From: an uncultured Candidatus Binatia bacterium
GTDB taxonomy: Bacteria > Desulfobacterota > Binatia > UBA9968 > JAJDTQ01
Direction of reading: 5' to 3'
DNA: 64,000 nucleotides
Assembly: GCA_965215605.1 (NCBI GenBank)
Contig: OZ244070.1
Coordinates: 2,752,001 to 2,816,000 of the forward strand
The notes under the pieces: model-generated
What the model saw: the letters and a program-made list of their open reading frames with translations, nothing else
Told to the model about the DNA's origin: nothing
Database searches by the model: none
Part shown: positions 1-9,550 of the stretch, piece after piece
Numbering within the stretch: position 1 is the first letter of the stretch
Layout: each line of letters starts with the position of its first letter
Made by a program: the position numbers and the translations under genes

Positions 1-91
1 CGGATCGCCATTGCGCGCGAATCCGCGTAACCCGATCCGGTGGGCTGCGCCGGACTTCCGGACCGACACCACGAAGACAGGGAGGTTCATC

Positions 92-1108
92 ATGCAGGTC
101 TACTATGACCAGGACGCGGATCTGAGCCGGATACGCGACCGCAAGGTCACGGTGCTCGGTTATGGCAGCCAGGGGCACGCGCATGCCAGCAATCTGCGCG
201 ACTCGGGCGTGGACGTGGTGGTGGGGCTGAGGCGCGACAGCGCGTCCTGGGCCAAGGCGGCGGATGCCGGCCTGACGGTGATGGAGACGGCCGAGGCCGC
301 CGAAGCGGGCGACGTGGTCATGGTCCTGCTGCCCGACGAGCTTCAGGGCGACGTCTACCGGGACGTCATCCGGCCCGGCCTCAAGCCGGGCAACTACCTG
401 GCCTTCGGGCACGGTTTCAACATCCATTTCAAGCGCGTGGTGCCTCCCGAGGACGTCAACGTCTTCATGGTGGCGCCCAAGGGGCCGGGCCATCTGGTGC
501 GGAGCGAGTTCGAGCGGGGCAGGGGAGTGCCGTGCCTGCTGGCGGTCGAGCAGGATCCCACCGGGGACACCACGTCGGTGGGCCTGGCCTATGCCGCCGC
601 CATCGGCGGCGCCCGCGCCGCGGTCATCGAGACCAGCTTCAAGGACGAGACGGAAACGGATCTGTTCGGCGAGCAGACGGTGCTGTGCGGCGGCCTCACC
701 TCGCTCATCCAGGCGGGCTACGAAACCCTGGTGGAGGCGGGCTATCCGCCGGAGATGGCCTATTTCGAGTGCTGTCACGAGGTCAAGCTGATCGTCGACC
801 TGATCTACGAGGGCGGCTTGGCCAACATGCGGTACTCGGTGAGCAACACCGCGGAATACGGCGACCTTACCCGCGGCAGCCGCATCGTGGACGACGGCAC
901 GCGCAAGGTCATGAAGGAGATCCTGGCGGACATCCAGTCCGGAAAGTTCGCCGACGAGTGGATGAACGAGCACCGTGCCGGCTCCCCGCGCTTCAACGAG
1001 TTGCGCCAGTCCTCCCGGAGCCACCCCATCGAGAAGGTGGGCGAGCAGCTCCGGTCCATGATGCCGTGGCTGGCCGAGAACCGGCTGGTGGACAAGAGCA
1101 AGAACTGA
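92..1108 (+). CDS. ilvC: Ketol-acid reductoisomerase
   Basis: [17 protein letters not shown] and [10 protein letters not shown] motifs; ATG at 92 after GGAGG SD (the ORF-track start at 11 is an extension). Confidence 0.97.
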
Positions 1109-1761
1109 CGCGGGCTGCCACCGGATACAAGGACAAGGGAGACACTCCCATCGGCATCGCAAGAGAAGGCTACCGGTTCGTGTTTGCCGCGCTGGGGCTG
1201 GCGGCCGCGGCGCTGGCCGTGGGCTGGCTGGCCGCGGGTGCGGCGCTGGCGGCCGTCGCCGTGGCGGTGGCGGCGTTCTTCCGCGATCCGGAACGGGTGG
1301 CGCCCGACGGCGAAGGGATCGTCGTGTCGCCGGCGGACGGCAAGGTCGTGGACGTCGGCGAGTCCTCGGAGGCCGGGGACCGCAGGCTCAGCATCTTCCT
1401 GTCGCCTCTGGACGTGCACATCAACCGGGCGCCCATGAACGGGCGAGTGACGGATGTCCGCTATCGGACGGGGCACTTCCTGGCAGCCTACAAAGGCAAG
1501 GCGTCCGACGAGAACGAACGCAACGCCGTCGAACTGGTGGATGACTCCGGAAGGACGCTCCGTATCGTCCAGATCGCCGGCTTCCTCGCGCGCCGGATCG
1601 TCTGCTACGTGGGCCGTGGTGATTCGTTGAAACGGGGCGAGCGTTTTGGCTTGATCATGTTCGGTTCCCGGGTGGACCTCCATCTCCCGGGGAACGCCGC
1701 CGTCGAGGTCCACGCGGGCCAGCGGGTCCGCGGCGGCGAAACCATCGTGGCCAGACTCTGA
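1105..1761 (+). CDS. psd: Phosphatidylserine decarboxylase proenzyme (short type)
   Basis: [25 protein letters not shown] and FGSR self-cleavage motif; adjacent to pssA; start uncertain (CTG at 1105 overlapping the ilvC stop). Confidence 0.9.
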
Positions 1762-1775
1762 CCGCCGAGAGTTTC

Positions 1776-2609
1776 ATGGAACGCTCCGAGAAGGGCGACG
1801 CGCCGTTCAAGAAGGTCCGCCTGATTCCTCCGGGGAAGATGCGGCGGCGCATGAGGCGGCGGAATCCGTCCAACCGGATTCGCCGGGGCATGTACCTCCT
1901 GCCCAGTCTTATCACCGCGGGCAATCTCTTGTGCGGCGTGTTCGCGATCTTCGTGGCCTTGAACGGCGAGTACCACCTGGCGGCCATGTTGATCGTGGCC
2001 GCACACCTGCTGGATGGGATCGACGGCGCCGTGGCGCGGCTGACCCACACCACCAGCCAGTTCGGCGTCGAGTTCGATTCTCTGGCCGACGTGGTGTCCT
2101 TCGGCGTGGCCCCGGCGGTGCTGGTCTACGTGTTCGCGCTGGCCCCCTGGGGGACCTGGGGCGGCCTCGGCACTGCGCTGTTCGCGGTTTGCGGCGCGCT
2201 GCGGCTGGCACGCTTCAACGTCCAGACCCTGACCGCGGAAAAGAGCTACTTCACCGGATTGCCGATCCCCGCGGCCGCCGGCATGATCGCGGCCACCCTC
2301 TTCATGTACCTGATGCTGGGGCTCGAGGACACGGGCAGCAAGCCGGTGGTCTTCACCGTCATCGCCTGTGTCCTGGCCGGCCTCATGGTAAGCAACTTCC
2401 GCTATTTCAGCCTGAAACAGCACCACTTCAAGAAGCGCAGCACCGTTTGGCTGTTGCTTTCCGCGCTGGCAGTCATTATACTGACCATCGCTATGTGGCA
2501 GATCGTGTTGTTCTCGGCGTTATTAGCCTACACCCTATCGGGCCCCCTGTTGGGGCTGCTCGCCGTGCGGAAGCGACGGAGGGACGCACAGGCACTCTTA
2601 CAAGCCTGA
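1776..2609 (+). CDS. pssA: CDP-diacylglycerol--serine O-phosphatidyltransferase
   Basis: CDP-alcohol phosphotransferase motif DGxxAR...G...DSLAD, RLARFN, FTGLPIP; hydrophobic. Confidence 0.95.
   Translation: MERSEKGDAPFKKVRLIPPGKMRRRMRRRNPSNRIRRGMYLLPSLITAGNLLCGVFAIFVALNGEYHLAAMLIVAAHLLDGIDGAVARLTHTTSQFGVEFDSLADVVSFGVAPAVLVYVFALAPWGTWGGLGTALFAVCGALRLARFNVQTLTAEKSYFTGLPIPAAAGMIAATLFMYLMLGLEDTGSKPVVFTVIACVLAGLMVSNFRYFSLKQHHFKKRSTVWLLLSALAVIILTIAMWQIVLFSALLAYTLSGPLLGLLAVRKRRRDAQALLQA
2454..2482 (+). promoter_or_regulatory. sigma70-like promoter inside pssA, putative leuA promoter
   Basis: TTGCTT (2454-2459), 17-nt spacer, TATACT (2477-2482); locally AT-rich codons inside a GC-rich gene. Confidence 0.6.
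2493..2609 (+). other. Putative Leu-rich leader peptide nested in-frame in the pssA C-terminus
   Basis: ATG at 2493 just after the internal promoter; MWQIVLFSALLAYTLSGPLLGLLAVRKRRRDAQALLQA, 10 of 38 residues Leu, including TTA x3, TTG x2 and CTA. Confidence 0.5.
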
Positions 2610-2637
2610 ACGAAACGAACCTCAGCTTGCATGATCC

Positions 2638-2673
2638 AAACTCCCGCCGGGCATTCCGCGGGAGTTTTTTTTT
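2638..2673 (+). terminator. Intrinsic terminator (attenuator-like) immediately upstream of leuA
   Basis: AAACTCCCGC-N10-GCGGGAGTTT stem running into a T9 tract that abuts the leuA SD. Confidence 0.85.
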
Positions 2674-2686
2674 GAGGAGGGAGAAC

Positions 2687-4239
<1,553 letters not shown>

Positions 4240-4243
<4 letters not shown>

Positions 4244-5334
4244 GTCACAAGATCACGGTGCTTCCGGGCGACGGCATCGGCCCGGAAGTGGTGGCCGAAG
4301 CCATGGCCGTGCTGGCGCAGGCCGGCGACATCTTCGGCTTCAGCATCGAAGCGGAGGAGGGGCTGGTGGGCGGCGCGTCCATCGATGCCCACGGCAAGCC
4401 CCTCACCGACGAGGTCCTGGCCATGACCAAGTCCAGCGACGCGGTGGTGCTGGGAGCCATGGGCGGACCCAAGTGGGACGGCCTCGACTACTCCATCCGT
4501 CCCGAGCGAGCCTTGCTGGCGTTGCGCCAGGAGCTCGGGCTGTTCGCCAACCTGCGTCCGGTCAAGCTGTTCGCGCCGTTGGCGCAGGCCTCCACCCTCA
4601 AGCCCGAGGTGGTGGAAGGCACGGACCTCATCGTTGTACGGGAGTTGACCGGGGGCATCTACTTCGGGCAGCCCAAGGGCGTCACGGCGGAACCGGACGG
4701 CACCGAGCGGGGCGTCAACACCCTGGTCTACACCACGCCGGAGATCGAGCGCATCGCCCGGGTGGCCTTCGAGGCCGCCCGCAGACGCCGCGGCCGGGTG
4801 ACCTCGGTGGACAAGGCCAACGTGCTGGAGTCGACGGAACTGTGGCGCAAGGTCGTGACCCGGATCCGCGACGACGAAGGCTACGGCGACATCGAGCTCG
4901 ACCACGTGCTGGTGGACAACTGCGCCATGCAGCTCATCCGGGACCCCAGGCAGTTCGACGTGATCGTCACCACCAACATGTTCGGAGACATCCTGAGCGA
5001 CGAAGCGGCGATGCTCACCGGTTCCATCGGCATGTTGCCGTCCGCGAGCCTTGGCGGCAAGGTGGGCATGTACGAACCGGTGCACGGCAGCGCTCCGGAC
5101 ATCACCGGGCAGGACAAGGCCAACCCCCTCGCCACCATCCTCACGGTGGCGCTCATGCTGCGCCACTCCTTTGACCAGGGGGCCGCCGCGGACTGCATCG
5201 AACAGGCGGTGGAGCAGGTGCTGGAGGCCGGTTACCGCACCCCGGACATCGCCGACGGAAAGGGCTCGCTGGTGGGCTGCAAGGAAATGGGCGCCCTGGT
5301 GCGGCAGGAAATCGCGGCCGGCCGCGCGGCGTGA
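4240..5334 (+). CDS. leuB: 3-isopropylmalate dehydrogenase
   Basis: [27 protein letters not shown]; ATGA overlap with leuA. Confidence 0.97.
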
Positions 5335-5341
5335 CACGACG

Positions 5342-6367
5342 ATGACGGGCAAAGAGAAATACAACGTCGCCGTGGTGGGAGCCACCGGGGCGGTGGGCGA
5401 GGAGTTGCGGAAGATTCTCGAGGAGCGCCTGTTCCCCGTGGGCACCCTGCGGTTGCTGGCCTCCGAGCGCTCCGCCGGCCAGCGCCTCGGTTTCTCCGGC
5501 CGGCAGATCCCGGTGGATGTGCTGGACGAGGATTCCTTCGAGGACATCGACATCGCATTGTTCTCGGCGGGGGGTTCGGTGAGCGCCAAGTACGCCCAGG
5601 CGGCGGTGGACGCCGGCGCCGTGGTCATCGACAACACCAGTTTTTTCCGGATGGACGAAGACGTCCCGCTGGTGGTGCCGGAGGTCAACGCGGACAAGAT
5701 CGCCGACCACGTCAACCGGGGCATCATCGCCAACCCCAACTGCTCCACCATCCAGATGGTGGTGGCGTTGAAGCCGCTGTACGACGCCGCGGGCATCAGC
5801 CGCATCGTGGTATCCACCTATCAGTCGGTTTCCGGGGCCGGCCGGCGGGCCATGGAGGAGCTCGGCAAGCAGACCGCGGCGCTGTTCAACGGCCAGGACG
5901 TCGAGTGCGAGCAGTTCCCGCACCAGATCGCGTTCAACTGCATCCCCCACATCGACACGTTTCTCTCAGACGGTTACACCAAGGAAGAGTGGAAGATGAT
6001 CCAGGAGACGCGCAAGATCCTGGACGACCCGGAGATCCGCATCACCGCCACCGCGGTGCGCGTGCCGGTGTTCTGCAGTCATTCGGAATCCATCAACGTC
6101 GAGACCCGCAGCAAGCTCTCGGCGGGCGAGGTCCGCGCCATCCTCAAGGAGGCGCCCGGCGTGCTGCTCCAGGACGACCCCGAGGGCAATGGCTATCCGC
6201 TCGCCACCGAGGCGGCCGGCACGGACGCCACCTGCGTGGGGCGCGTCCGCGAGGACGATTCGGTGGAGAACGGCATCCACCTGTGGGTCGTGGCCGACAA
6301 CCTGCGCAAGGGCGCGGCCCTGAACGCCGTGCAGATCGCCGAGATCCTGATCCGGGACCACCACTGA
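5342..6367 (+). CDS. asd: Aspartate-semialdehyde dehydrogenase
   Basis: GATGAVG, NPNCST, DNLRKGAALN. Confidence 0.97.
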   Translation: MTGKEKYNVAVVGATGAVGEELRKILEERLFPVGTLRLLASERSAGQRLGFSGRQIPVDVLDEDSFEDIDIALFSAGGSVSAKYAQAAVDAGAVVIDNTSFFRMDEDVPLVVPEVNADKIADHVNRGIIANPNCSTIQMVVALKPLYDAAGISRIVVSTYQSVSGAGRRAMEELGKQTAALFNGQDVECEQFPHQIAFNCIPHIDTFLSDGYTKEEWKMIQETRKILDDPEIRITATAVRVPVFCSHSESINVETRSKLSAGEVRAILKEAPGVLLQDDPEGNGYPLATEAAGTDATCVGRVREDDSVENGIHLWVVADNLRKGAALNAVQIAEILIRDHH

Positions 6368-6473
6368 CACTTCCGCCGAGGAAAGCATTCGCCTCCACCA
6401 TCCCGTCCGTTCCCGAAACCCGTGGACCGTCCGCTCCCGCGCCGACCCCCTGGCCGCTCCTCAGGAAACCTGC

Positions 6474-7241
6474 ATGAACGTGCGACTGACCCTCGAATAC
6501 GACGGCACCGAATACCAGGGCTGGCAGGTCCAGTCCGGCGGGCCGACCGTTCAAGGCGTCCTGGAGGAGGCTCTTGCCGTGCTGCTGAAGCGCAAGGTGC
6601 GCGTACGAGGTTCCGGACGGACCGATGCGGGCGTTCATGCGCTGGGCCAAGTGGCGGATTTCACGTGTCCCGACGCCCGCGACCTCACCGGGCTCCAGCG
6701 GAGCCTCAATGCCCTCACCCCCGACGACATCACGGTGAAGGCCGTCGAGGAGGCGGCCCCATCCTTCGACGCGAGAAGGGATGCGACGAATCGGGTCTAC
6801 GAGTACCGGCTCTGGAACCACCCTTGGCGGTCGGTCTTCAACGATCGCTACTCTTGGCATGTCCGGAGGCCGTTGCGCGTCGACGCCATGGCCGGGGCCT
6901 TGGCTGCTCTCGAAGGGGAGCACGACTTCTCGTCCTTCCGCGCCGCCGGCTGCGGCGCCGTCACTGCGACCCGGCGGATCTACCGCAACGGACTGTACCG
7001 TTGGGAGGATCACTGGGTCTATCGTATCGAGGCCACCGGTTACCTCCGCCACATGGTGCGGAACATCGTGGGCACCCTGGTGCAGATCGGGCTGAACGAG
7101 AGGGATGCCGGCGATCTGCCGGTATTGATGGACAGCCGTGACCGTAGGCTGGCCGGCCCCACCGCGCCCGCACGGGGCCTCTTCCTGGTGGAGGTCTCCT
7201 ATGGTCCGTCCCCATCCCTCCGCCGGGATTCCACCCCGTAA
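6474..7241 (+). CDS. truA: tRNA pseudouridine(38-40) synthase
   Basis: YDGTxYxGWQ, GRTDAGVHA, HMVR, TAPARGL. Confidence 0.96.
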   Translation: MNVRLTLEYDGTEYQGWQVQSGGPTVQGVLEEALAVLLKRKVRVRGSGRTDAGVHALGQVADFTCPDARDLTGLQRSLNALTPDDITVKAVEEAAPSFDARRDATNRVYEYRLWNHPWRSVFNDRYSWHVRRPLRVDAMAGALAALEGEHDFSSFRAAGCGAVTATRRIYRNGLYRWEDHWVYRIEATGYLRHMVRNIVGTLVQIGLNERDAGDLPVLMDSRDRRLAGPTAPARGLFLVEVSYGPSPSLRRDSTP

Positions 7242-7293
7242 GCGATCCGCGCCCGGAATGACGAATCCAGGCCGCACGACCACCCGTCAGCCG

Positions 7294-7365
7294 GCCATCC
7301 CGGTCAAGCCCCCGGGACGACCTTGGGTCCGCCCTCCGGCGTCCCGGGGGCTTGACCGGGATGGC
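7294..7365. repeat. Perfect 26-bp inverted repeat (REPIN-like hairpin)
   Basis: GCCATCCCGGTCAAGCCCCCGGGACG (7294-7319) and its exact reverse complement (7340-7365), 20-nt loop; shares the GGTCAAGCCC core with other local repeats. Confidence 0.85.
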
Positions 7366-7466
7366 TTTGCGGATGCCCGGAACGACGGACCGGACACCTG
7401 CGGCCCTTCGGTATTCGTTTCACGAGACTCCGCGTTCACCGTGCCTGCCGCCTGCTTCGCTTGAGC

Positions 7467-7495
7467 TTGAATTAGCACCGGCTGATGGCTATAAC
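7467..7495 (+). promoter_or_regulatory. sigma70-like promoter for leuCD
   Basis: TTGAAT, 17 nt, TATAAC; AAGGAG SD and ATG follow. Confidence 0.5.
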
Positions 7496-7520
7496 TTTCC
7501 GCCAAGGAGAAAACTGATCC

Positions 7521-8918
7521 ATGTCGGAACGTACACTTTATGACAAGGTCTGGGATGCCCATGCGGTGACGACGCTGCCCACCGGACAAACCCAGCTCTT
7601 CATCGGATTGCACTTGGTTCACGAAGTCACCACCCCGCAGGCGTTCGACATGATGCGGGAGCGGGGGCTTTCCATCGCCTATCCGCAACGGACTTTCGCC
7701 ACCGCCGATCACATCATACCCACCGATACCCAGGTCCGGCCCTTTGCCGACGAGCAGGCCGAGGCGATGATGGCGGCGCTGGAACGGAACGTCCGTGACT
7801 TCGATATCGAGTTCTACGGCCTGGGAAGCGACCGGCAGGGCATCGTCCATGTCATCGGCCCCCAACTCGGTCTGACCCAGCCGGGAATGACCTTGGCCTG
7901 CGGCGACAGCCACACCAGCACCCACGGCGCCTTCGGGACCCTGGCCTTCGGCATCGGCACCAGCCAGGTCCGTGATGTGCTGGCCACCCAGACCCTGTCC
8001 ATGGACCGGCTCAACGTGCGGCGCATCAACGTCAACGGCAGCCTCCCCCTCGGGGTGCACGCCAAGGACGTGATCCTGACCATCATCCGTACGCTCGGGG
8101 TCGGCGGCGGCAAGGGCTTCGCGTACGAGTACGGCGGCGCGGTGCTGGATGCCATGAACATGGACGAGCGCATGACCGTGTGCAATATGAGCATCGAGGG
8201 CGGGGCGCTGGTGGGTTACGTGAACCCCGACAGCACCACCTTCGACTACCTGCTGGGACGGCCTTTCGCGCCCAAGGGCGAAGCCTTCGACCGCGCCATG
8301 GCGTACTGGCGCGCCATGGCGTCGGATCCCGACGCCCGCTATGACGACGTGGTGGAGATCGACGGCTCGGCCATCGAGCCGACGGTCACTTGGGGCATCA
8401 ATCCCGGGCAGGCGGTGGGCGTGCTCGAAAACCTGCCTCGGCCCGAGGAACTGCAGGACCCCAAGACGGTCGAGAAGGCCTACCAGCACATGGGTTGGGA
8501 ACCGGGCGCGCCGATTCTCGGAACTCCCATCGATGTGGCGTTCATCGGTTCCTGCACCAACTCCCGGTTGTCGGACCTGGTGGCCGCGGCGCGCGTCGCC
8601 AAGGGGAGGCTGGTATCCTCAGACGTGCGGGCGCTGGTGGTGCCGGGCTCGGTAGAAGTGAAGAAACAGGCGGAGGCGGCCGGGCTCGACCGCGTCTTCA
8701 CCGAGGCGGGCTTTCAATGGCGGGAGGCCGGCTGCTCCATGTGTCTGGCCATGAATCCCGACAAGCTCGACGGCCGCGAGGTGTGCGCCTCCTCGTCGAA
8801 CCGCAACTTCATCGGCCGCCAGGGGAGCCCGGGCGGGCGGACGCTGTTGATGAGTCCCGCCATGGTGGCGGCGGCCGCCTTGAACGGCAAGGTCGTGGAC
8901 GTGCGCGAGTACAACTGA
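7521..8918 (+). CDS. leuC: 3-isopropylmalate dehydratase large subunit
   Basis: [30 protein letters not shown]. Confidence 0.97.
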
Positions 8919-8929
8919 TCGGGAGTCCC

Positions 8930-9550
8930 ATGAGCGAGATCAAGCAGGTAGGCGGCAGGGCGGTGGTGGTCCGTGGCCACGATATCGATACCGATCGGAT
9001 CGTGCCGGCCCGCTACCTCAAGGAGATCACCTTCAGCCGGATGGGTGAATACCCGTTCATCGACGAACGGCACGACGCCGACGGTAACACGGTGAAGCAC
9101 CCGTTCAACGAGGCCCGCTTCCAGGGCGCCGAGATACTGGTGGTCAACCGCAACTTCGGCTGCGGGTCGTCACGGGAGCACGCGCCGCAGGCGCTGTACC
9201 GCTGGGGGATCCGCGCCGTCGTCGGCGAATCCTTCGGCCCCATTTTCGCCGGCAGCAGCGTGCTGCTGGGCATGCCCACGGTGATGGCTTCGCCGGAGGA
9301 TGTCGGGCGGCTCATGACACTGGTGGAGTCCGATCCCCAGGTGGAATTGACGGTGGACCTTGAGGCCCGCAAGGTCCGCCTGCCGGACGGCAGCGACATC
9401 GACATCGACATCAGCGAAGGGCACCGCAACGCCCTGACCACCGGCACGTGGGACTCCACGGCCCTCCTGCTCGGCAACATGGATGAGGTGGCCCGGACCT
9501 CCGAGAAGCTGCCCTACACCAAGAACTTCGAGGGGCCGGCGCCGCTGTAG
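8930..9550 (+). CDS. leuD: 3-isopropylmalate dehydratase small subunit
   Basis: DIDTDRI, NFGCGSSREHAP. Confidence 0.95.
   Translation: MSEIKQVGGRAVVVRGHDIDTDRIVPARYLKEITFSRMGEYPFIDERHDADGNTVKHPFNEARFQGAEILVVNRNFGCGSSREHAPQALYRWGIRAVVGESFGPIFAGSSVLLGMPTVMASPEDVGRLMTLVESDPQVELTVDLEARKVRLPDGSDIDIDISEGHRNALTTGTWDSTALLLGNMDEVARTSEKLPYTKNFEGPAPL

Follow-up and report, generated by a model that had tools for sequence, protein, structure and literature searches.

The pssA-leuA junction analyzed here lies in a 64,000-nt stretch of DNA (C1:2752001-2816000; hereafter the window) from an uncultured Candidatus Binatia bacterium with a 4.06-Mb genome of 65.8% GC. The first gene, pssA, encodes a phospholipid-synthesis enzyme, and the second, leuA, encodes 2-isopropylmalate synthase. 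Between them sits an intrinsic terminator, and within the last 50 or so codons of pssA lie further regulatory features, among them a cluster of rare leucine codons and a strand complementary to the terminator. Judging from comparison with related loci, we consider it probable that this junction is a ribosome-mediated, leucine-sensing transcription attenuator for leuA, leuB and the genes beyond, with the 3′ end of pssA serving as the leader frame. An initial annotation of this DNA had proposed a leucine attenuator in the pssA tail. Comparison favors that core idea but not the antiterminator pairing, the internal methionine start or the use of TTA 2598 as a sensor codon that were proposed with it.

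The window opens inside ilvC, upstream of which lie ilvB and ilvN, and the gene order continues with psd (ending at 1761), pssA, leuA, leuB, asd, truA and leuC, as assigned with NCBIfam and a list of open reading frames (ORFs). The spacer between pssA and leuA is 77 nt long. As had been claimed, it contains an intrinsic terminator directly in front of the leuA Shine-Dalgarno (SD) sequence, with a folding energy of −18.2 kcal/mol. The stem consists of nine pairs with one bulged C and is extended by pairs between A2638-2640 and U residues. Since the T-run runs straight into the leuA SD sequence, no promoter could be accommodated between the terminator and the gene, and leuA can be transcribed only through the terminator. 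The terminator sequence occurs once in the genome. A simple scan for consensus promoters and terminators listed neither this terminator nor the promoter-like site described below; the bulge probably caused the scan to omit the terminator, although this is a guess.

We compared the junction with related loci. A search with PssA found 212 relatives, and 80 loci were kept. In 56 of these (L001-L056), leuA lies behind pssA with the same terminator, giving, together with the window, 57 junctions. The window, L001-L022 and L056 make up a close clade of 24 sequences, in which PssA is 78 to 94% identical and the spacer is 72 to 78 nt long. The distant clade comprises the 33 loci L023-L055, with PssA 52 to 59% identical and spacers of 75 to 236 nt. 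The other 24 loci (L057-L080), which lack this terminator, were used as controls; 23 were usable, and L062 was ignored for its mis-assigned frame. The closest public loci are in metagenome-assembled genomes titled Candidatus Binatia, Syntrophobacterales or Deltaproteobacteria. Among the controls, L075 and L080 have a pssA-leuA gap of 12 to 14 nt without a hairpin, and loci of the Geobacter/Trichlorobacter type have no leuA behind this pssA homologue.

The consensus CTCCCG-YYGG-loop-CCGCGGGAG-T-run was found in all 57 junctions. Across them, 99% of the 505 cells of the terminator stem are paired, seven of the nine pairs are invariant, and the distance from the stop codon to the CTCCCG arm is always 26 to 35 nt. 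The loop sequence differs between the two clades. Searching a sample of 401 genomes from the phylum for the terminator pattern gave matches in five, a result that says little about how widely the terminator is distributed: it stands beside pssA or leuA only in the window's own genome (G000) and in G291, and the matches in the other three are unrelated hairpins.

Some spacers hold further structures. In L004 the stop-spanning hairpin of its clade (see below) is missing, and a second CTCCCG copy lies upstream of the terminator arm instead. About 170 extra bases with a long hairpin, which look like an inserted repeat, separate the terminator from leuA in L050 (L050:3395-3570), where the spacer reaches 236 nt. 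Downstream of the terminator in L033 (L033:3300-3369) and most of L029-L055 is a GGGCCAACGG-like sequence complementary to the terminator 5′ arm plus loop. For this downstream partner, 78% of cells pair, versus 25 to 46% when it is slid, and changes in the loop are matched, for example GGCUU with AAGCC. This is a third alternative pairing, which may hold the terminator open or influence leuA translation. In the window's clade the spacer is too short for such a partner.

The second component is the leucine codon tract, in which 8 of 18 codons specify Leu: TTG 2508, TTA 2520, TTA 2523, CTA 2535, CTG 2547, TTG 2550, CTG 2556 and CTC 2559. Counting from an in-frame ATG at 2493, the initial annotation had described a 38-codon peptide that ends at the pssA stop (2607-2609), 28 nt before A2638, and contains 10 Leu codons. 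This description was accurate, the codons being TTA three times (2520, 2523 and 2598), TTG twice, CTA once, and CTG and CTC twice each. Within the last 34 pssA codons, TTA occurs three times and CTA once. Their rarity was likewise borne out: TTA, CTA and TTG account for 0.52%, 1.95% and 8.4%, respectively, of Leu codons in 2,306 long ORFs of the genome, which has five tRNA-Leu anticodons with one gene apiece. At least three TTA codons within 30 codons occur in 4 of these 2,306 ORFs, a set from which pssA itself had been removed by an overlap filter. By eye, the four look like wrong-frame or stop-to-stop extensions or a low-GC gene, and none was similar to the pssA tail.

The same bias is present in the relatives. 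At 50 of the 57 junctions, the final 40 codons of pssA have an excess of TTA over the remainder of pssA plus leuA (Fisher P < 0.05 per locus), and in 22 of the 24 close-clade loci that remainder has no TTA at all. Every close-clade sequence has three to five TTA or CTA codons in a 20-codon tract; distant-clade loci have one to five, with at least three in 28 of 33. The individual positions vary across the close clade: 2520 is TTA in 16, CTA in 4 and TTG in 3 sequences; 2535 is CTA in 18 and TTA in 6; and 2550 is TTA in 12, CTA in 6, TTG in 3 and CTG in 3. Rare codons that move among the Leu positions in this way look like the product of selection for rarity rather than for a fixed sequence or a single tRNA. 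The shift is specific to Leu. In the close-clade tract, A/T-ending codons make up 98 of 201 Leu codons (49%) versus 21 of 265 non-Leu codons (8%), and in the body of pssA they make up 43 of 653 Leu codons. For the distant clade, the corresponding figures are 102 of 154 and 116 of 321 in the tract and 110 of 708 in the body. The Ile, Val, Ser, Gly and Pro codons of the tract remain GC-ending.

No control tail has more than one TTA (23 usable loci), despite locus GC contents down to 42%. The joint conservation that the initial annotation set as a check was found: rare Leu codons and terminator are both conserved in the 57 junctions examined, and rare codons are absent from homologues without the terminator. 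The tract encodes a hydrophobic helix and, as its frame belongs to a real gene, is presumably translated. The third TTA, at 2598, is a different matter. It lies inside the 5′ arm of the stop-spanning hairpin, and the relatives have GTA, ATA, CTA, GCC or CGA there. Because the relatives vary at this position and the hairpin arm is conserved, TTA 2598 is probably structural and not, as had been supposed, a sensor codon.

The third component is the putative antiterminator strand. Across the junctions, the complement of the terminator 5′ arm is placed in conserved Arg-Arg-Glu codons of the PssA tail. In the window, CGGAGGGA forms seven pairs and one A·G mismatch with UCCCGCCG in the terminator 5′ arm and pairs better with it than with the partner originally named. 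The close clade has the general form CGG-A-GGGA against UCCC-G-CCG, with seven pairs and one mismatch, and the distant clade has CC-RR-CGGGAG against CUCCCG-YY-GG, with ten pairs. In the joint alignment, 84% of 558 cells pair, versus 30 to 50% with the partner slid, and one pair exchanges between G-C (25), A-U (18) and G-U (13). Codon choice within the strand is also constrained. The sequence CGA CGG AGG GA is present in 22 of the 24 close-clade sequences, and in the rest of the genes CGA and AGG make up 2% and 10% of Arg codons; across the three codons tabulated for the 33 distant-clade loci, CGC, the commonest Arg codon, appears only once. When 24-nt windows of pssA plus leuA were compared, the antiterminator strand was the best partner of the arm at 27 of the 57 loci, and at 25 of the 27 loci L029-L055. 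In L012 and L019, a change of Lys to Glu (CGG GAG) at codons −13/−12 from the pssA stop makes a perfect CGGGAG, which, unlike the strand in the remaining close clade, is the best arm-pairing window of pssA plus leuA (−20.4 kcal/mol).

Two further hairpins were found between the tract and the terminator. The first, P1, is a candidate anti-antiterminator or pause hairpin whose 5′ arm starts at the last Leu codon of the tract; 99.5% of its 216 cells are paired in the 24 close-clade sequences. At the same place, the distant clade has a different hairpin, GGUGCUU/AAGCACC, which is 87% paired, with C-G/U-A exchanges in eight cells, and its 5′ arm contains the codon after Trp-Cys, which is usually TTA. 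The second (−6.2 kcal/mol) spans the pssA stop codon and was correctly noted in the initial annotation. In the close clade, 91% of its 191 cells are paired, versus 14 to 37% when slid. For the 24 close-clade sequences, RNAalifold also returned a pairing of 2509-2517 (codons UUGUUCUCGG) with 2675-2683 in the leuA SD region, which is mostly G·U and possibly due to chance.

We then folded the transcripts with a ribosome footprint masked and the RNA ended ahead of the terminator 3′ arm. With the footprint on the last Leu codon, at least five of the eight arm nucleotides were modelled to pair with the antiterminator strand in 50 of the 57 loci. In the constrained fold of the window, this pairing forms with the ribosome at 2556 or 2559, and with 2541-2572 covered. 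The result for a ribosome at the stop codon, 0 of 57, is true by construction and thus constitutes no evidence. A hairpin at 2539-2562 that rivalled P1 in some of these folds was dropped because it needs GGG 2553, which is TGG in half of the relatives.

It had also been suggested that leuA has a near-consensus promoter inside pssA. The site is indeed at the position given, but it matches the consensus at 3 of 6 and 5 of 6 bases in the two hexamers and scores below the scan threshold, so that "near-consensus" is too strong a description. The pattern TTG-N20-TATANT, which was chosen post hoc, occurs once in the 64-kb window against an expectation of 0.03. Both hexamers are invariant in all 24 close-clade sequences, 6 of the 17 spacer positions vary, and rare Ile codons (ATT ATA) form the −10 hexamer. 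At the homologous place, the distant clade has TTG(G/C)TT-17-TA(C/A)ACT despite differing residues (Ile-Ile, Ile-Thr and Ile-Lys), and the motif is absent there from the control homologues L057-L080. At codons −60 to −41 and −10 to −1, the close clade shows dips in synonymous-site entropy. The site is weak, and an internal promoter seems plausible, with about an even chance of being real. In general, alignment of the junctions showed conservation of the terminator, the rare Leu codons and the promoter position, as had been foreseen; only close-clade sequences have the in-frame ATG at 2493. In the distant clade, the Met (in …I-M-F-F) is an ancestral PssA residue that is present in the controls too. 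With no sign of a conserved internal start, the simplest sensors would be ribosomes that complete full-length PssA.

Nor is there a separate leader gene in the spacer, in agreement with the initial annotation: the 77 nt contain only a 14-codon ORF without Leu, whose ATG is not conserved in the relatives. The +2 frame across the junction was considered as a leader and rejected, being simply the open leuA frame and not Leu-rich. Overall, the arrangement embedded in pssA is real and conserved, and it goes beyond chance. The elements and their positions are collected in Table 1.

Table 1. Elements of the pssA-leuA junction, with window positions
Element	Position	Strand	Details and basis
pssA, CDP-diacylglycerol--serine O-phosphatidyltransferase, 277 aa	1776..2609	+	NCBIfam TIGR00473, E 1.5e-42, 145 bits vs cut-off 107; ORF list
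Promoter-like TTGCTT-17-TATACT inside pssA, candidate internal leuA promoter	2454..2482	+	8/12 consensus match (3/6 + 5/6)
Candidate leucine sensor tract, 8 Leu in 18 codons	2508..2561	+	Codon usage, close relatives
Hairpin P1, candidate anti-antiterminator or pause hairpin	2559..2583	+	Segment 1 2559-2568, segment 2 2573-2583; −11.3 kcal/mol, RNAalifold
Putative antiterminator strand CGGAGGGA (codons Arg-Arg-Asp)	2577..2584	+	Partner UCCCGCCG, 2642-2649; constrained fold, conservation
Stop-spanning hairpin	2601..2629	+	2601-2609/2622-2629; −6.2 kcal/mol; would lie within antiterminator loop
pssA stop codon TGA	2607..2609	+	28 nt between stop and A2638; 31 nt to first terminator stem pair
Intrinsic terminator, candidate attenuator	2638..2673	+	5′ arm C2641-G2650, 3′ arm C2656-G2664; A-tract 2638-2640; T x9 at 2665-2673
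leuA SD sequence GAGGAGGGAG (from 2674) and start codon ATG 2687	2674..2689	+	Sequence, relatives
leuA, 2-isopropylmalate synthase	2687..4243	+	NCBIfam NF002086, E 4e-231; followed by leuB, asd, truA

From the sequence features described above, their conservation and their co-occurrence, we infer the following order of events, the response to leucine, and the sensing transcript and its start. RNA polymerase would arrive on the ilvBNC-psd-pssA transcript, and possibly also from the internal promoter, and would have to get past the terminator for leuA to be expressed. A ribosome in the pssA frame would encounter the Leu tract, enriched in rare TTA, CTA and TTG codons. When charged tRNA-Leu is plentiful, the ribosome would reach the stop codon at 2607, and P1 would re-form behind it and sequester the antiterminator strand, so that the terminator folds and transcription stops. 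When tRNA-Leu is scarce, the ribosome would stall at the last Leu codons (2547-2561) and cover the 5′ arm of P1. The freed CGGAGGGA could then pair with the terminator 5′ arm ahead of synthesis of the 3′ arm, giving read-through into leuA. A broader proposal, which we put at an even chance, is that some 50 codons at the end of pssA are under four constraints, specifying the last helix and basic tail of PssA, a promoter, a Leu-sensing tract and both strands of an RNA switch, so that ribosomes finishing a real protein report the charging of tRNA-Leu.

A number of observations speak against a leucine attenuator of this kind. The window's rarest codons (TTA TTA at 2520-2525 and CTA 2535) sit 22 to 40 nt upstream of P1, too far for a ribosome stalled there to cover it, and the codons beside P1 are CTG, TTG, CTG and CTC; TTA and CTA are commoner at 2547-2556 in the relatives than in the window. 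A ribosome waiting at the stop codon leaves the antiterminator strand uncovered, so the "off" state would depend on the kinetics of P1, and the strand is predicted to be sequestered behind such a ribosome in only 36 of the 57 loci. P1 and the stop-spanning hairpin are invariant in the close clade, without covariation, and the covariation in the antiterminator is mostly one difference between clades. The window's own antiterminator is weak and statistically not exceptional: its duplex is worth −13.6 kcal/mol versus −18.2 kcal/mol for the terminator, and 106 of the 770 other coding windows are equal or better partners for the window's arm. The case for a switch in the window is thus one of homology and codon fixation rather than of energy. 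Because the loci are relatives, the counts given above are not independent and overstate independence. A search for RNA sequencing runs covering window positions 1100-4300 listed none. Finally, asd and truA lie downstream of leuB, and leucine control of both would be odd.

Some of these observations are also expected if nothing at the junction is regulated. An unregulated or leaky intercistronic terminator could end the ilvBNC-psd-pssA transcript and fix a lower level of leuA-leuB, with the rare Leu codons serving otherwise, for example by slowing translation during insertion of the last helix, and with the complementarity of the Arg codons a GC-rich coincidence. The unexceptional duplex in the window and the lack of covariation in the close-clade structures would fit this explanation, and a hydrophobic helix requires many Leu residues anyway. 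It is nevertheless unlikely. The rare-codon bias is limited to Leu codons and to loci bearing the terminator, the Arg codons are held to rare synonyms, and at 25 of the 27 loci L029-L055 nothing else in approximately 2.3 kb of coding DNA matches as well as the complementary strand. Moreover, with no promoter able to fit behind the terminator, leuA would be starved of transcription if that terminator were strong and constitutive.

We also considered a translation-coupled switch that is not specific to leucine, in which the alternative hairpins react whenever the ribosome completing pssA is slowed or uncoupled, as in general starvation or membrane-insertion stress. The identical geometry of terminator, P1 and antiterminator would apply, and the sensing ORF encodes a real membrane protein that may be translated at varying rates for unrelated reasons. 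Such a switch would not, however, account for a shift to rare forms that affects Leu codons alone and leaves those for Ile, Val, Ser, Gly and Pro GC-ending, and the regulated gene is that of the first committed enzyme of leucine synthesis. The plain Leu-rich leader at the related locus L078, described below, likewise points to leucine. We rate this explanation as more doubtful than the leaky terminator. Least probable of the three is a factor-dependent attenuator, in which a protein, small RNA or tRNA recognizes the terminator stem-loop or its flanks and the pssA codons are not sensing: the terminator is conserved in sequence, not structure alone, across clades with PssA about 55% identical, and part of the distant clade has the extra downstream partner for arm and loop, but Rfam gave no match (E up to 10 for the window and up to 0.01 for four relatives), the loop sequence differs between clades, the need to pair with two partners explains the conservation of the stem, and the Leu-specific rare codons would be left unexplained.

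We looked at the flanking genes for comparable elements. Downstream of truA, a perfect stem of about 25 bp followed by TTTG (7293-7366; region fold z = −5.1) is likely a strong terminator closing the leuA-leuB-asd-truA unit. A promoter-like TTGAAT-17-TATAAC lies at about 7468-7496, before leuC, and neither a leader peptide nor a leader-peptide attenuator was seen upstream of that gene. Ahead of ilvB (C1:2749440-2749763) is a good promoter-like TTGACA-17-TACATT with a 68-codon ORF (MIASVLDQDPELRKYY...); no Ile/Val/Leu leader peptide or terminator was seen upstream of ilvB.

If the leucine attenuator in pssA is real, the 3′ ends of ordinary genes can conceal amino acid attenuators, outside the reach of searches limited to mini-ORFs and 5′ untranslated regions (UTRs), and genome-wide searches for attenuators and riboregulators that are limited to 5′ UTRs would overlook mid-operon switches. 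The junction would then offer a clear natural example of dual or triple coding, in which one stretch carries a protein, a codon-rate signal and an RNA switch, and would show how a regulatory device can be compacted into a 77-nt intergenic gap. Synonymous codon swaps would be expected to alter regulation while leaving the protein unchanged, which would make this a compact, testable system.

Attenuation through a leader peptide is a textbook mechanism. With the enterobacterial leu attenuator (leuL, RF00512) and the trpL/hisL/thrL/ilvL class, the junction shares a terminator directly ahead of the first leucine gene and clustered rare Leu codons, together with an antiterminator that would exclude the terminator, as seen in the distant clade and putative in the window, and an upstream hairpin that would sequester the antiterminator strand. 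It differs in several respects: it lacks a dedicated short leader ORF, the proposed sensing frame being the C terminus of a 277-aa enzyme; the eight Leu codons are spread over 18 codons of a membrane helix rather than forming a consecutive run; and the stop codon falls after the antiterminator strand and before the terminator rather than within segment 2. Neither sequence nor structure matches RF00512. An Rfam scan of window positions 1-9000 (E up to 10) gave chance-level matches only, with no Leu_leader (RF00512) and no T-box (RF00230), and a scan of L078, L050, L033 and L023 (E up to 0.01) gave no match, T-box included. Rare Leu codons are the paradigm feature of the enterobacterial leu leader, and rare CUA codons are described in that of Salmonella (PMC1183508).

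A more conventional arrangement occurs at the same junction in L078 ("Candidatus Binatus sp."; L078:3335-3612). Its 272-nt pssA-leuA spacer contains a promoter-like TTGACT/TACAAT, a 27-codon ORF (MYCNLLPELLLSLALTG..., 7 Leu) and a GC-rich hairpin with a T-run, elements that, as read from the sequence, have the makeup of a classical dedicated Leu leader. Like the window, L078 has a Leu-rich tract and then a terminator before leuA, and an ATG about 10 nt after a −10-like hexamer. Unlike the window, it has its own promoter-like site and a separate ORF, and its pssA tail has no TTA and one CTA.

The ampC attenuator of Escherichia coli is not known to be an amino acid sensor or to be read through frdD codons. 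Its layout, with the ampC promoter inside the last frd gene and the frd operon terminator acting as the ampC attenuator (PMC11838884), is the one proposed by the initial annotation for pssA-leuA, where the internal promoter is predicted only. In Geobacter, leuA itself (Gmet_1265/GSU1906) is controlled by a T-box leader (PMC2700814). The regulated gene and the logic, from uncharged tRNA-Leu to antitermination, are shared; the T-box binds the tRNA directly via a leader of about 300 nt, whereas no T-box was detected here, where the spacer is 77 nt. If the attenuator in pssA is real, one junction would have carried three leucine sensors in related lineages: one embedded in an enzyme gene, one with a dedicated leader and one T-box. 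In actinobacteria, the LEU element upstream of leuA ties a leader with Leu codons to RNA structure (Seliverstov et al. 2005, PMC1262725). It differs in being a pseudoknot whose Leu codons pair with the SD sequence; its upstream ORF is a dedicated one, and it has no comparable terminator switch.

Full-text searches, for which subscription journals were mostly out of range, found no description of an attenuator in the C terminus of pssA or of any upstream enzyme, and no paper combining attenuation, a leader peptide, leuA and Deltaproteobacteria. To our knowledge, the sensing frame of the attenuators described so far is a dedicated mini-gene in the 5′ leader. On our best reading, then, the logic at the pssA-leuA junction is that of known leader-peptide attenuators, and the novelty would lie in their placement, with a conserved enzyme's coding sequence containing the sensor codons as well as the antiterminator strand.

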